64,000 nucleotides of DNA from Promethearchaeota archaeon (lineage in GTDB: Archaea > Asgardarchaeota > Lokiarchaeia > Sigyniarchaeales > SOKP01). The translations under genes were made by a program, and so were the position numbers. The DNA lies in contig JAUVNS010000003.1 of NCBI GenBank assembly GCA_030599585.1, positions 288,001 through 352,000 of the forward strand, given 5' to 3'. This document shows positions 41,622-46,696 of the stretch, in pieces (the stretch's first letter is position 1; every line of letters begins with the position of its first letter). The notes under the pieces are model-generated. The model ran no database searches. It was not told the origin of the DNA and saw only the letters and a program-made list of their open reading frames with translations.

Positions 41622-43415
41622 ATGGATAAGCAAAGAATTTTAAAAGAAGCCCAAAAAATTGCTGCGAAATTCTCATTTTGGATGGTTTCCGGGAACATCT
41701 CGCATTTATTTGGGTATGTGTACGAGACTCCTGGGGGGAAATACGAGTTAGAGATTAAATTTGACGACGATTTTCCGTACGTTCCTCCGGATTTAGTGCA
41801 CCATAAGGAGATCAAGGAGCTTTTAGGAGATTTTCAGTTAGAATCGGTTAATAATTGGACAATAAATTCTTCAGTGGTAGGCATTATTATTGAGCTTAAA
41901 TCAAAAATCCAGCAGGCATTGCCAAAGCCTGAGAAAGAAGAACCACTACCATTAATCCCTACATCTGATGTATCTGATGTTGATGAAGCTCCTGAGCAAA
42001 ATAAAGCTGAATCACTCCAAGAAAGAGATGGAGAGGAAGTGATAACAGCGGAAATGGAAACGAAAATAGAAGAAGAAACTGCAAAGGAAGAATATTTGAC
42101 TCCAGATTTGGACGTCTATCCTCCTGATTTTGAATACGAGAAATTTCTCACGCCTTCCGAAATCGAAGAAGATACATCACACAAAAAAGAGCCTCACGAG
42201 GACAGTTTAGTAACTGAACCCTCAGAATTGGATGAAATTAGTTCTCAAGAAACGACTGAATTAACTCAACCAGAGCTTTTTGCAGATCACGAGCAAACAA
42301 GTGTTGCATTAAACACGGAAATCGGTTTAATTCAACAGGAATACGCTTACGACCAACTTTCCCAACAGAAAGGGGATTTAAACATTTATTTAACCATTAC
42401 TCTTACGAAGACATTTATAATTCAGATTAATTTCAACGACTATCCTGAAAAACCGTCGATAATTGTTCCGGAAGACGCTCACAATTTAGTAGGCGATGTT
42501 TATCAAACTTTAGACGTGTTAAAAAACTGGAACCCTGAAAAACATCCTCATATTGTGGATATTTTACGCGAATTAGAGAAAAAATTGTATTTTATAAAAG
42601 ATATTGAGCAGGAATCAAAGAAAATTCTTGGAGAATATCAATGCGATGTAGACTCTGACAATGTAACCAAGTTACAAGTCCATTTGGTAACCTATGGATT
42701 TAAAGAGTATTTATTGGATGTAAACTTGGATTCTTTTCCTAAACCTCCGGCCATCAAATTATCTTCGCAATTACAGCAAATTATTATGACTCCATTGACC
42801 GAATTGAAGTCGTATAAAAATTGGGTAGATGGAGAATCTGAACCTGTTGAAGTTATAAGAGAACTCGCTTGGTTGGTAGATAAAAACTCTAGGATAACTT
42901 TTGAAATAGAATTATTAAAGGAGCACTATAAAAAGATCGAATACAATTCGTCTACATCGACTCTGATTGTGAACATGAAAGGTAAAATGAAAACTCAAGA
43001 TTTGACTTTCGAATTTCAGATCGATTTGCCTATTGATTACCCCATGAAAGTGCCCTCGATTAAAATTATTAACGAATTTGAACTCGAGATGCACGAAAAA
43101 ATCAAGAACGACCTTCAATCTTCTTTTAAGAATTTCTTTGACGATTGGTCTCCATTTAGCTATTTAGTGGATTTATTTAACGCTATCTCAAAGAAGATAT
43201 TTGAAATATCCGTAGTTTCGTGTGTTATATGCCATAAAATCGACTGTCCTACGTGTAGCTTAAAAATTGCAGGTCCAGAACAAGAAACATGCCACATAGA
43301 TTGTCCATATTGTGAGCGATCATACCATAAACATTGCTGGGAGCAAACGATAAAATCATTTGGAAAATGTGGATTTTGTCTTAAAGTTCCACCCCTAGAC
43401 CTAATGCCGAATTAA
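41622..43415 (+). CDS. Putative E3 ubiquitin ligase: four UBC/RWD-like repeats, acidic linker, C-terminal RING finger
   Basis: Four copies of the E2-fold strand-turn motif (FDDDFPYVPP, FNDYPEKP, LDSFPKPP, LPIDYPMKVP), each followed by a W-containing helix (NNWT, KNWN, KNWV, DDWSP); Cys/His-rich residues 534-586. Confidence 0.8.
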   Translation: MDKQRILKEAQKIAAKFSFWMVSGNISHLFGYVYETPGGKYELEIKFDDDFPYVPPDLVHHKEIKELLGDFQLESVNNWTINSSVVGIIIELKSKIQQALPKPEKEEPLPLIPTSDVSDVDEAPEQNKAESLQERDGEEVITAEMETKIEEETAKEEYLTPDLDVYPPDFEYEKFLTPSEIEEDTSHKKEPHEDSLVTEPSELDEISSQETTELTQPELFADHEQTSVALNTEIGLIQQEYAYDQLSQQKGDLNIYLTITLTKTFIIQINFNDYPEKPSIIVPEDAHNLVGDVYQTLDVLKNWNPEKHPHIVDILRELEKKLYFIKDIEQESKKILGEYQCDVDSDNVTKLQVHLVTYGFKEYLLDVNLDSFPKPPAIKLSSQLQQIIMTPLTELKSYKNWVDGESEPVEVIRELAWLVDKNSRITFEIELLKEHYKKIEYNSSTSTLIVNMKGKMKTQDLTFEFQIDLPIDYPMKVPSIKIINEFELEMHEKIKNDLQSSFKNFFDDWSPFSYLVDLFNAISKKIFEISVVSCVICHKIDCPTCSLKIAGPEQETCHIDCPYCERSYHKHCWEQTIKSFGKCGFCLKVPPLDLMPN

Positions 43416-43546: not shown

Positions 43547-46500
43547 ATGGTTTTCGTGGAAACATTAGAAAAAAGATTGAATCTGATAAAATTAGAAGAG
43601 AATATATTGGACTTTTGGAAGAAAGAAGAAATTTATTCTAAGATCAGAGAGAAAGAAAAAGATAAAGAAGTTTGGAGGTTTATAGACGGGCCTCCTTATA
43701 CTACTGGCTCAATACATCTCGGAACTGCCTGGAATAAAATCCTAAAAGATTATTTAATTAAATACAAAAGAATGAGAGGCTTTAGGGCAACAGATACCCC
43801 AGGATACGATACCCATGGATTACCAATTGAGGTTCAATTAGAAAAAATCTTAGGTATAAAGAATAAGCAAGAGATTCAGAAATATGGCGTAGACAAATTT
43901 ATAAAAGGGTGTAAAGAATACGCACAAGAAAGGCTTTTAGTAATGAACGAGCAATTCAAACGCTTAGGCTGTTATTTCTGGGATTGGGACAATCCTTATA
44001 TAACGTTTAAAAACAGCTATATCGAAGGAATATGGTGGACTTTGAAAAAAGCTTACGAGAAGGGTTTAATGTACCAATTTTTTAGACCCTTAAATTGTTG
44101 TCCAAGGTGCGCGACTGCTCTTGCTAAGCACGAACACGATTATAAAAATGTTATAGATACAAGTTTATTTCTAAAGATAAAATCTGCAGATATGGACGAT
44201 ACTTATTACATAATTTGGACTACTACACCTTGGACTTTAGTAGCAAACGAAGCAATAATGGCGAATCCGGCTGCTGAATACGTAAAAGTTAAATTAATAG
44301 ACTTGAATGAATACTGGATTTTATCGAAAGCGTCCGTTACGCATCTAATCTCCGGAGAATTGGGCTTCAAATACAAAATTGTAGAGGAATTTTACGGCGA
44401 ACAATTGAAGGGTAATAAATACATACATCCCTTGTTAGAAGAAGTTCCTTTTCAAAAAGAATTGGCAAAACAAAGCGACACAGTACATTCTATCATTTTA
44501 TCGGAAGAATATGTTTCGGCTTCGGAAGGGGTTGGATTAGTTCACTCTGCTCCCGGCCACGGACCTGAAGATTTTGAGGTAGGCGTTGCAAATAATATTC
44601 CCGTTTTTACTCCAGTTGACATAAAGGGAGTATACACGAAAGACGCAGGAATATTTGAAGGAAAATTTGTATTTGACGCGAACAAAGAAATTCTGGCTTT
44701 ATTGAAACAAAAAGGAACTCTCCTTTTAACTAGCGAGTTAGAGCACGAATACGCTCATTGTTGGAGGTGCGATTCGAAACTAGTATATCGAGCGACAAAC
44801 CAATGGTTTTTTAAAACTGAAAGTCTATCTTCGGAACTATTAAAAAAAAACGAAGAAATTTATTGGGTTCCTGACTGGGCCGGCAATAGATGGTTTAAAA
44901 GCTGGTTAACTTCTTTAAAAGATTGGTGTATTTCAAGACAGCGCTTTTGGGGTGTTCCTTTAAATGTTTGGATATGTGATAACGAAGATTGTGGGGACAT
45001 AGCAGTGATAGGTTCGGCAAAAGAACTAAAAGAAATTGCTGGAGAATGCCCAGAAGACTTACACCGTCCATGGATAGATGAAGTTACTTGGAAATGTAAA
45101 AAGTGTAATAAAGGAACAAAAAAGCGGATACCAGACATTTTAGATGTTTGGTTGGACTCTGGGTCGGTAATGTGGGCTTCACAGGAAATATACGATGGCG
45201 AGAGCCATTACGATACCTGGGTTCCTGCGGATTTCATACTTGAAGGTAAAGATCAGATCAGAGGGTGGTTTAATAGCTTGTTATGTAGCGCGATGGTTTC
45301 CACAGGAAAAAAAAATTACGATAATTGCTACATGCACGGTTGGGTTTTACGAGATAAAGTAAAAATGAGTAAATCGAAAGGGACAGCATTTTTACCTGAA
45401 GATCTTATTAATGGCACATTAGATCAAATAAAAAGCAAGAAATCCTATTCGCAGATAAAAGGTATCGAAACATTCCGTTTCTACTGTATCGGAGCAACTC
45501 AACCAGGTCGCGATTTAAATTTCAGTGCAAAGGAATACGCAGATACGTACAAAACCATTAATACAATTTGGAATGTTTACGTTTACGCGAATGAGAAATT
45601 TGGTTTAGCTAAATTTGATCCCTCTAAGGATAAAATTGACGAGAAAAAGCTAAGCAAGTTTGATAAGTGGATACTTTCAAGAACAAATTCTACTATTGAA
45701 AAAATAACAGAATTAGCCGATAAATACGAACTCCCATGGATTCCCGGTGAACTGAGAGATTTAATTGTTAGCGACATAAGTAGATGGTATATAATGTTAA
45801 ACCGAGAAAAACTCGACATCTATTCCAACGATCCAAATAAACTCCAGATTATGGCCGTACTTTATAAGGTCTTATTCAATGTTGTATTGCTGTTAGCTCC
45901 GATCAATCCAATGCTCAGCGAAGAATTATACTTAAAAATGTTCAAACCTCACTTAAAATCGATGGGTTTGGAGGAATCTGAAAGCATTCACCTGCAAAAT
46001 TGGCCAGAAATCGATAAAACAAATATTGACGCAAAATTAGAAGAAGAAATGAGATTTGTAAGGGACCTAATAGAATCGATTAGAGCGTTAAAAGAAGAAA
46101 ATAAAATTAGGCTAAGATGGCCAAACAAACGAATAATTATAGAACCTAAAGAAGACATGCCTGAAATAGGATTTCCAGAGATTATTAAACAAATAGGAAA
46201 TGTAAAGGAATTAGAAATAAAAAAATCGGTTACATCTGCGGATAATTTGCGAAAAATAGAACACAAATATTGTAACATTTATCTGGATGTTAGCGTTGAC
46301 GACAAATTATTAAATGAACGTGTAGTTAACGATTTAATAAGAAATATTCAATTCTCTCGTAAAAAGAAAGACTATAAAGTAGGTGAGACGATTTCATTAA
46401 CAATTGGAACTAGTACCGATTATTTGAAGGGATACATCGAAACCAAAAAAGAAAGCATTTCGGATAAAGTATCTGCCAAAAAATTTGAAGTGTCTTCCAA

Positions 46501-46696
46501 GGAATTAAATGAAGAGAAGGAAAAAGTGTTTGCAAAGTTGTACCTTTGTCCAAATAAAGATTGTTCTGCTTCTTTAAAGGAAAATATTAATAAAAGACTA
46601 AAAAAAGATGCTGAAGTACAATGTCCATATTGCAACACGAAGTTAGAAGAAGCAAATTTAAAGACTATTACATATAACTATAAAAGAGAAAACTAA
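43547..46696 (+). CDS. ileS: Isoleucine--tRNA ligase (archaeal/eukaryote type)
   Basis: DGPPYTTGSIHLGTAWNK, WTTTPWTL, DWCISRQRFWG, EGKDQIRGWF, KMSKS. Confidence 0.97.
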   Translation: MVFVETLEKRLNLIKLEENILDFWKKEEIYSKIREKEKDKEVWRFIDGPPYTTGSIHLGTAWNKILKDYLIKYKRMRGFRATDTPGYDTHGLPIEVQLEKILGIKNKQEIQKYGVDKFIKGCKEYAQERLLVMNEQFKRLGCYFWDWDNPYITFKNSYIEGIWWTLKKAYEKGLMYQFFRPLNCCPRCATALAKHEHDYKNVIDTSLFLKIKSADMDDTYYIIWTTTPWTLVANEAIMANPAAEYVKVKLIDLNEYWILSKASVTHLISGELGFKYKIVEEFYGEQLKGNKYIHPLLEEVPFQKELAKQSDTVHSIILSEEYVSASEGVGLVHSAPGHGPEDFEVGVANNIPVFTPVDIKGVYTKDAGIFEGKFVFDANKEILALLKQKGTLLLTSELEHEYAHCWRCDSKLVYRATNQWFFKTESLSSELLKKNEEIYWVPDWAGNRWFKSWLTSLKDWCISRQRFWGVPLNVWICDNEDCGDIAVIGSAKELKEIAGECPEDLHRPWIDEVTWKCKKCNKGTKKRIPDILDVWLDSGSVMWASQEIYDGESHYDTWVPADFILEGKDQIRGWFNSLLCSAMVSTGKKNYDNCYMHGWVLRDKVKMSKSKGTAFLPEDLINGTLDQIKSKKSYSQIKGIETFRFYCIGATQPGRDLNFSAKEYADTYKTINTIWNVYVYANEKFGLAKFDPSKDKIDEKKLSKFDKWILSRTNSTIEKITELADKYELPWIPGELRDLIVSDISRWYIMLNREKLDIYSNDPNKLQIMAVLYKVLFNVVLLLAPINPMLSEELYLKMFKPHLKSMGLEESESIHLQNWPEIDKTNIDAKLEEEMRFVRDLIESIRALKEENKIRLRWPNKRIIIEPKEDMPEIGFPEIIKQIGNVKELEIKKSVTSADNLRKIEHKYCNIYLDVSVDDKLLNERVVNDLIRNIQFSRKKKDYKVGETISLTIGTSTDYLKGYIETKKESISDKVSAKKFEVSSKELNEEKEKVFAKLYLCPNKDCSASLKENINKRLKKDAEVQCPYCNTKLEEANLKTITYNYKREN

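Follow-up and report, generated by a model that had tools for sequence, protein, structure and literature searches.

Locus and domain organisation of the protein

The window analysed here is a stretch of 64,000 nucleotides from a Promethearchaeota archaeon (Asgardarchaeota; Lokiarchaeia; Sigyniarchaeales; GenBank assembly GCA_030599585.1), corresponding to positions 288,001 to 352,000 of the forward strand of contig JAUVNS010000003.1. One of its genes encodes a protein of 597 residues that ends in a cysteine-rich finger, and the nature of this finger is the subject of the present work. An earlier, sequence-only reading of the same DNA had proposed a RING with a third zinc site, comparable to those of Rbx1 and of APC11 from the anaphase-promoting complex/cyclosome (APC/C). 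The features of the gene are as follows (window coordinates):

41622..43415, plus strand: whole gene, 597 residues; four domains with the fold of ubiquitin-conjugating enzymes (E2s), of UEV/RWD type and without a catalytic Cys, plus an acidic linker and a C-terminal RING (open reading frame list and translation)
41622..41921, plus strand: domain 1, residues 1-100; predicted UEV/E2-like fold lacking the catalytic Cys, with a UQ_con match at residues 33-109
41922..42296, plus strand: acidic linker, residues 101-225; variable and disordered, with a predicted local distance difference test score (pLDDT) of 26-49
42303..42587, plus strand: domain 2, residues 228-322; RWD/UEV-like by the secondary structure of the model (pLDDT >90), inside the stretch that aligns with FANCL
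42591..42881, plus strand: domain 3, residues 324-420; RWD/UEV-like according to the model
42894..43151, plus strand: domain 4, residues 425-510; RWD/UBC-like, with Pfam RWD at residues 428-522 and UQ_con at residues 438-486
43164..43220, plus strand: connector between domain 4 and the finger, residues 515-533, containing KKIFEISVVS; a helix is predicted in the full-length model
43221..43379, plus strand: RING finger, residues 534-586, with 12 putative ligands (ligand table, model of the RING alone, RING/U-box matches)
43245..43292, plus strand: insertion with C542, C545 and C557, three of the four putative ligands of a third zinc, which aligns to C53/C56/C68 of Rbx1
43332..43334, plus strand: codon of H571, the putative fourth ligand of the third site, equivalent to H82 of Rbx1 (ligand table)
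43380..43412, plus strand: Pro-rich tail, L-K/R-x-P-P-P-x-x-M, conserved in the alignments

The AlphaFold model of the full-length protein (pLDDT 74) contains four E2-fold domains. In domain 1, whose sequence has no Cys, a helix is followed by four strands and further helices (pLDDT ~90). The acidic linker differs in both length and sequence among the aligned homologues. Domain 4 is matched by the Pfam models RWD (E 1e-4; 22.9 bits, cut-off 22.8) and UQ_con (E 4e-7). A catalytic E2 role for these domains was considered and rejected, as the only Cys outside the finger, C341, lies within the first ~20 residues of domain 3, far N-terminal to the E2 catalytic position.

When the whole model was compared with the PDB using Foldseek, the best matches were FANCL (9a0j_L, E 2.3e-7 over 404 columns; 7kzp_L, E 1.7e-6; also 3k1l and 3zqs) and BRE/BABAM2 (E 2.7e-7), with Listerin (E 2.4e-4) further down, then CENP-O and true E2s. 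FANCL, which is composed of an ELF domain, a double RWD and a C4HC3 RING, likewise has three E2-fold domains without a catalytic Cys ahead of a C-terminal C4HC3-type RING. However, the archaeal protein differs from it by an extra N-terminal UEV-like domain, the acidic linker and the putative third zinc site. Neither the protein nor its tail was matched by the Pfam FANCL models (E up to 1), and we know of no Fanconi partners in archaea. In the predicted structure the overall architecture is FANCL-like, which is a likeness of layout and not evidence of descent.

Ligand pattern and covariation of the putative third zinc site

In the tail, the candidate zinc ligands are arranged as C534-x2-C537-x4-C542-x2-C545-x11-C557-x3-C561-x2-C564-x4-H569-x-H571-C572-x10-C583-x2-C586. 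Residues 534-586 hold 10 Cys and 2 His, and ten of the eleven Cys of the whole protein fall within these 53 residues, a clustering that, judged from the translation, is far from chance. The order and spacing given for residues 534-586 by the sequence-only reading were reproduced by the translation, in which positions 43197-43382 correspond to residues 526-587. It had also been stated that the spacing is identical to that of Rbx1 from the second CxxC onward. This is correct for the window protein but does not describe the family: the x11 spacing is found in only 3 of 40 fingers, the loop between C545 and C557 ranging from 6 to 26 residues. The features that remain constant are the x4 between the first two CxxC motifs, C557-x3-C561-x2-C564 and H-x-H-C, and mostly also the x10. 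The segment FEISVVSC, previously likened to WDIVVDNC of Rbx1, shows conservation only behind an RWD domain and is unrelated in the copies fused to a beta-helix or leucine-rich repeats (LRRs); it therefore belongs to the RWD-to-RING connector, outside the finger. The Arg noticed at the position equivalent to H77 of Rbx1 is indeed present as R566, C561 standing in as ligand. As position 566 is R, K or S in 41 of 45 fingers, the core does not follow the RING-H2 pattern (C-x-H-x2-H) and is of the C4HC3 type.

A word-indexed search retrieved 301 homologues. Among the 120 matches listed, nearly all are full length with 55-91% identity, and the source organism, where named, is always an Asgard metagenome-assembled genome (MAG), labelled Prometheo- or Lokiarchaeota and also Hod-, Hermod- or Odin-. 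In an alignment of 114 full-length homologues, 11 of the ligands are invariant and C557 is conserved in at least 90%. More distant members were obtained by an exhaustive phmmer search with residues 425-597 against 1.84 billion cluster representatives, which yielded 52 clusters only; many of these have the finger alone in common with the window protein. Forty-five diverse fingers drawn from the 52 clusters were aligned (alignment A3) and form the basis of the ligand table. In A3, C534, C537, C564, H569, C572, C583 and C586 are present in every finger and C561 in 44. The ligands proposed for the third site are nearly as constant: C542 and C545 are each found in 43 fingers and C557 in 40, while position 571 is His in 39, Cys in 3 and Ser, Asn or Gly in one each, i.e., capable of acting as a ligand in 42. 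Two neighbouring histidines, H538 and H558, were tried as ligands and rejected, as both vary freely in A3. R566 also varies freely, which marks all three as non-ligands.

The pattern of loss is more informative than the counts. Only two fingers, P0134 and P0167, lack C542 and C545; both also lack C557 and carry Asn or Gly at position 571, and what remains in each is a complete C4HC3 set (C534, C537, C561, C564, H569, C572, C583, C586). P0134 belongs to the four-domain family and P0167 to a subfamily fused to other domains. The chance that both knuckle-less fingers would fall among the three with a non-ligand at position 571 is ~3/990, by arithmetic on A3 that is uncorrected for relatedness. 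In three further fingers the replacement of H571 by Cys preserves the ligand. The joint loss in P0134 and P0167, together with these Cys substitutions, argues that C534/C537 are part of the core cross-brace and that C542, C545, C557 and H571 make up a separate third site. The third site suggested by the sequence-only reading is accordingly found conserved at its four positions (43, 43, 40 and 42 of 45) and lost as a unit twice, and the covariation supports the prediction that the four residues behave as one extra zinc site.

Predicted fold of the finger and its resemblance to Rbx1

AlphaFold2 modelled the finger with alignment A3 at a pLDDT of 86. All Foldseek matches of the 78-residue model are RING/U-box ligases, none of them at E <= 0.001 for so small a domain. 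A structural aligner run against 48,161 PDB representative chains placed the RING of Listerin first (Z-scores of 7.0 and 6.0), followed by other RING/U-box domains, with FANCL at Z 5.0 and APC11 at Z 4.6; the top 50 matches are essentially all RING/U-box domains and nearly all ubiquitin ligases (E3s). Among the best 1000 chains from Foldseek, Listerin reaches Z 7.2 over 67 residues and RBX1 (8rx0_R) Z 6.1 over 62 (model 1-75 against chain 30-103, 24% identity), compared with ~50 aligned residues for ordinary RINGs. Rbx1, Listerin and ordinary RINGs lie within ~1 Z of one another, and RING subtypes are not separated by these scores. No PHD finger was among the top structural matches to the 48,161 chains except PHF7, itself an E3, and the Pfam PHD model matched 4 of 45 members below threshold; the C4HC3 spacing is compatible with RING and PHD alike. 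The modelled fold appears to be that of a RING and not of a PHD finger. I536, P562, W573 and the C583-G-F-C586 turn are invariant in the 114 homologues. These positions are the usual E2-facing residues of RINGs.

The RING identity proposed at the outset stands, all structural matches being RING/U-box ligases with no PHD finger leading them, as does the Listerin-like C4HC3 core, which has the spacing of the Listerin and FANCL type. Neither poorly conserved ligands nor a PHD or other non-RING finger as best structural match, the two sequence- and fold-based outcomes that the sequence-only reading had named as speaking against itself, was encountered. Listerin (Ltn1) also combines an RWD domain with a following C4HC3 RING of C-x2-C-x4-H-x2-C spacing; its RING heads the structural matches of the finger, with Z 7.0-7.2 over 64-67 residues, and the protein matches the full-length model too. 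It differs by its long HEAT-repeat body, and nothing ties the archaeal protein to ribosomes. The Listerin RING binds two zinc ions.

The resemblance to Rbx1 is one of ligand plan and register. Used as a single sequence against all PDB sequences, residues 520-597 matched only RBX1 (E 0.005) and RBX2 in phmmer. This alignment to RBX1 is gapless from C542 on and agrees with the mapping given by the sequence-only reading: C534=C42, C537=C45, C542=C53, C545=C56, C557=C68, C564=C75, H569=H80, H571=H82, C572=C83 and C583=C94. Comparison with an Rbx1 family alignment by hhalign (E 4.2e-5, probability 70%, 59 columns) gave the same register and added D97 opposite C586, leaving H77 opposite R566 as the sole mismatch. 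Conversely, a 67-residue stretch of RBX1 searched against the 4.85-Mb genome in six frames found this finger only (E 0.009, 32% identity). Rbx1, Rbx2 and APC11 (zf-rbx1, PF12678; zf-ANAPC11, PF12861) thus share with the archaeal finger a plan of twelve ligands for, as predicted here from sequence, three zinc ions. In both, the third site consists of a CxxC and a single Cys, inserted between the first and second ligand pairs, together with a His beside ligand 6, and the C-x6-C and H-x-H-C spacings and a weak but reciprocal sequence match are further common points. There are also differences between the two. The archaeal core is C4HC3, with C561 instead of H77 and a Cys as last ligand where Rbx1 has Asp; the first two CxxC motifs are x4 rather than x7 apart; and the finger forms the C-terminal domain of a 597-residue protein, without the N-terminal strand that inserts into cullins.

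Profile comparisons point to a prokaryotic type of core. The zf-rbx1 model covers almost the whole finger, including the first CxxC (profile positions 2-55 of 55), and in a scan of the genome it matched other RINGs only over the generic half. The scores are nevertheless below its cut-off of 31 bits, at 11.5 bits for the tail of the window protein (P0001:520-597; E 0.37) and 21.7 bits for the best of the 45 fingers. The zf-ANAPC11 and RH_dom models also extend to the first CxxC, whereas Prok-RING_1 and zf-RING_2 begin at the second. Prok-RING_1 (PF14446) is the Pfam model that matches most family members (27 of 45, all below threshold). Its best match is the two-zinc variant P0167 (28.8 bits, cut-off 29.1), and P0001 is not matched at E up to 1; on three-zinc members it aligns from the second CxxC over 35 of 54 positions, the third site being no part of the model. 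The breadth of these matches and the near-threshold score of P0167 suggest that the core finger is of the Prok-RING_1-like prokaryotic type, and the simplest reading of the sequences would be a C4HC3 RING of that type that gained an inserted zinc knuckle. Of the earlier proposal that the finger may be a relative of the cullin-RING/APC RING, the structural half (a C4HC3 RING with a third site of Rbx1 type) is supported and the evolutionary half is not. A specific link is opposed by the sub-threshold zf-rbx1 scores, the like scores of generic RING-H2 ligases, the closeness of P0167 to Prok-RING_1 and the narrow distribution, and also by the setting, the finger forming the C-terminal part of a large protein of FANCL-like layout rather than a small cullin-bound subunit.

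Taken together, residues 534-586 are probably the RING of a candidate single-chain ubiquitin E3 of Lokiarchaeia that carries an Rbx1-like third zinc site. The core would be a cross-brace C4HC3 RING of the prokaryotic/Listerin/FANCL type in which, by sequence logic, zinc 1 is held by C534, C537, H569 and C572 and zinc 2 by C561, C564, C583 and C586. The knuckle formed by C542-x2-C545 and C557, placed between ligand pairs 1 and 2, would complete a third site with H571 next to C572, at the same sequence positions as in Rbx1, Rbx2 and APC11. Such a finger may recruit one of the ubiquitin-charged E2s of the genome, and the four UEV/RWD domains without a catalytic Cys may bind ubiquitin and/or a substrate, as the ELF and double-RWD domains of FANCL do. 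Several observations weigh against this proposal. The third site is not always lost as a unit, as P0126 keeps the knuckle yet has Ser at position 571, and P0130, P0153 and P0170 keep it yet lack C557. No Pfam RING model scores above threshold on the window protein. The family profile finds RING ligases in the PDB (E 4e-6 to 1e-4), but generic RING-H2 members score as well as RBX1 (RCHY1 28.7, Arkadia 27.7 and RBX1 27.3 bits) and align from the second CxxC. Many active RINGs have an Arg or Lys "linchpin" right after the last Cys, and here this residue is Leu. Finally, no conserved neighbouring gene hints at a substrate in the three homologue loci examined.

The foremost alternative, though an unlikely one, would make the finger a specific relative of the Rbx1/Rbx2/APC11 RING, or an ancestor-like form of it that has survived, with a third site that was inherited rather than acquired in parallel. 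Ten of the twelve Rbx1 ligands, among them all four of the third site, are identical and in register, D97 being met by Cys and only H77 lacking a match; His occurs at the H77-equivalent position in two family members (P0151 and P0171), and throughout the family the spacings C-x6-C and H-x-H-C do not change. The confinement of the single-sequence PDB matches to RBX1 and RBX2, and of the reverse search to this finger, points the same way. However, the core is C4HC3 and not RING-H2, zf-rbx1 remains far below threshold, generic RING-H2 domains score equally with the family profile, and the two-zinc variant nearly reaches Prok-RING_1, while the same genome also encodes a plain C4HC3 finger of the two-zinc kind whose local motifs are similar. 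In addition, strong matches are limited to the class of the window and one other family among the 30 Asgard families sampled, the Pfam Cullin model detected no cullin (with a control set that contained no eukaryote), and a domain of this small size would not yield a resolved tree. An evolutionary scenario built on such kinship is similarly doubtful: the three-zinc RING of cullin-RING ligases and the APC/C would descend from an Asgard finger of this kind, still fused to UEV/RWD, LRR or beta-helix domains, and would have split off as a small cullin-docking subunit in the eukaryotic stem. As to the origin of the third site, we lean towards a parallel, or at least unproven, relationship over shared ancestry with Rbx1.

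An ordinary two-zinc RING or PHD-like finger, in which the extra Cys and His are unbound, redox-active or wired differently (e.g., C542/C545 serving the core and C534/C537 an accessory knuckle), would explain why zf-RING_2, Prok-RING_1 and the PDB matches RNF4, RCHY1 and Arkadia all align from the second CxxC, and why some members lack one third-site ligand. We consider it improbable, as the variants without C542/C545 retain C534/C537 and the complete C4HC3 set, and as all 12 ligands are conserved where the neighbouring His are not, H571 having changed to Cys three times. The idea that the finger is no ligase but a binuclear or trinuclear treble-clef binder, such as a PHD-like reader, a Rubicon-homology-like binder of small GTPases or a C1-like domain, draws on sub-threshold Pfam matches (RH_dom in 23 of 45 members, best E 0.0016; C1_1 in 6; PHD in 4) and on the Leu at the linchpin position. 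This is very improbable: neither Rubicon nor C1 domains are among the top 50 of the 48,161 chains, where the sole PHD-type protein is itself an E3, the usual E2-facing residues are invariant in the 114 homologues, and the rest of the protein is made of ubiquitin-system folds.

To our knowledge, the only RINGs reported to carry a third zinc site are those in the catalytic subunits of cullin-RING ligases and the APC/C, on which protein turnover and the cell cycle of eukaryotes centrally depend. In the literature searched, no description of the family was found, nor any link between Asgard archaea and Rbx1-like fingers or FANCL-like proteins beyond a remark on a single Asgard RWD-like sequence. 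That an archaeal finger of the same ligand plan is conserved raises the question of whether the three-zinc plan is older than eukaryotes or an easy parallel invention, and at ~75 residues the finger offers a small, expressible test object.

Distribution, fusions and genomic setting

The full protein is present in 51 of 301 sampled Asgard genomes. Of the genomes from the window's own family, 47 of 68 have it (48 of 69 with the window genome included), and three further families of the class contribute one genome each, one of the three belonging to the window's order; the protein was found in none of the remaining 26 of the 30 Asgard families sampled. Strong matches to the finger profile cover the same range, and most of the weaker matches outside it are fingers of the two-zinc kind. 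A 669-residue protein with the full three-zinc signature occurs in one other Asgard family (f18). Among the source labels of the distant members are Loki-, Hel- and Sigynarchaeota, along with a single Thermoplasmata MAG. A distribution as patchy as this agrees neither with simple vertical descent leading to eukaryotes nor with a recent transfer from them.

Fingers of this type are also found, terminally or internally, in other proteins, fused to a NosD-like right-handed beta-helix, to LRRs or to other RWD domains. The appearance of the finger in such different fusions marks it as a mobile module, and partners of this kind are what one would expect if a ligase module were combined with domains that bind targets. 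The beta-helix fusions are P0141-P0144 and P0150, and the LRR fusion is P0159; P0161 is a double-RING protein with an N-terminal RING, an RWD domain and a three-zinc RING. The Pro-rich tail has a counterpart, L-E-x-P-P-x-E-L, that is also C-terminal to the beta-helix-fused fingers. The LRR, beta-helix and double-RING fusions look like single-chain ligases, and the first two suggest a family of such archaeal ligases with exchangeable target-binding parts.

Other RING proteins were met in the course of the searches. A minus-strand open frame of 679 residues (longest start-to-stop frame 512 residues), ending at position 1456 of locus L003 (G000:C34:164610-167741), terminates in a plain two-zinc C4HC3 RING (CTVCHK-x14-CPFC-x4-H-x2-C-x10-CPMC), and the sequence looks coiled-coil by eye. 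G000 denotes the genome of the window, C numbers its contigs and L numbers the loci taken from genomes or contigs. Lying on the same contig, the finger of L003 shares local motifs with the window finger (CTVCHK ... CPFCSSTYHYLC ... CPMC), and proteins of ~680-700 residues with an L003-type finger recur across genomes of the window's family; they constitute a second, undescribed RING protein family. In another Asgard family (f24; L013, L015 and L017), proteins of 384-1050 residues contain a zinc ribbon and then a RING of the C4-H-x2-H-C2 type (CIICR-x15-CPQC-x4-H-x2-H ... CPVC), unlike the three-zinc type. In a sister genus (g2; e.g., G255, G279 and G291), the match to the window protein is split at the acidic linker in many genomes, into residues 1-~110 and ~140-590, with single in-frame TAA or TGA stops inside; linker divergence, a split gene or sequencing errors may account for this.

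The window genome contains ubiquitin genes (one at G000:C47:25993-26184) and two E2s with a catalytic Cys (L006:1444-1953, plus strand, and L007:1468-1995, minus strand), the second of which belongs to a compact, eukaryote-like operon of a ubiquitin-activating enzyme (E1), an E2 and a JAMM protease (L007; G000:C28:97920-101387):

L007 2051-3283, minus strand: E1-like enzyme, 410 residues
L007 1468-1995, minus strand: E2, 175 residues, with WHPN and the catalytic Cys
L007 663-1487, minus strand: JAMM/MPN protease, 274 residues, with an HSHPS motif

A ubiquitin-like gene lies just upstream of the operon (C28:101313-101489; a weaker, sub-threshold match). The window protein is a candidate E3 for this E1/E2 system. 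In vitro reconstitution of Asgard E1, E2 and RING cascades has been achieved using other, small RING proteins (bioRxiv 10.1101/2023.07.25.550441; PMC5654768). When a complex of the finger (with A3) was predicted with three zinc ions and the E2 of the operon (L007:1468-1995, minus strand), the score was 0.01 against a mark of 0.32, a value that speaks neither for nor against binding. The Pfam Cullin model had no match in the genome, nor in any control genome, the control set being without a eukaryote.

Around the RING gene of the window, the gene directly downstream (43547-46696, plus strand) encodes a class I aminoacyl-tRNA synthetase with isoleucyl-type domains and DUF5915, and other genes nearby encode sugar-nucleotide enzymes. 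A synthetase of the same type directly follows the RING gene on a related metagenome contig (L011 7831-11010), one of the three homologue loci examined; neighbours are kept only among near relatives, and the adjacency is probably plain synteny. In another locus, a gene for a 170-residue E2-like protein with a weak UQ_con match (L010 10740-11252, plus strand) lies ~3 kb downstream of the four-domain RING gene, an arrangement not seen at the other loci.

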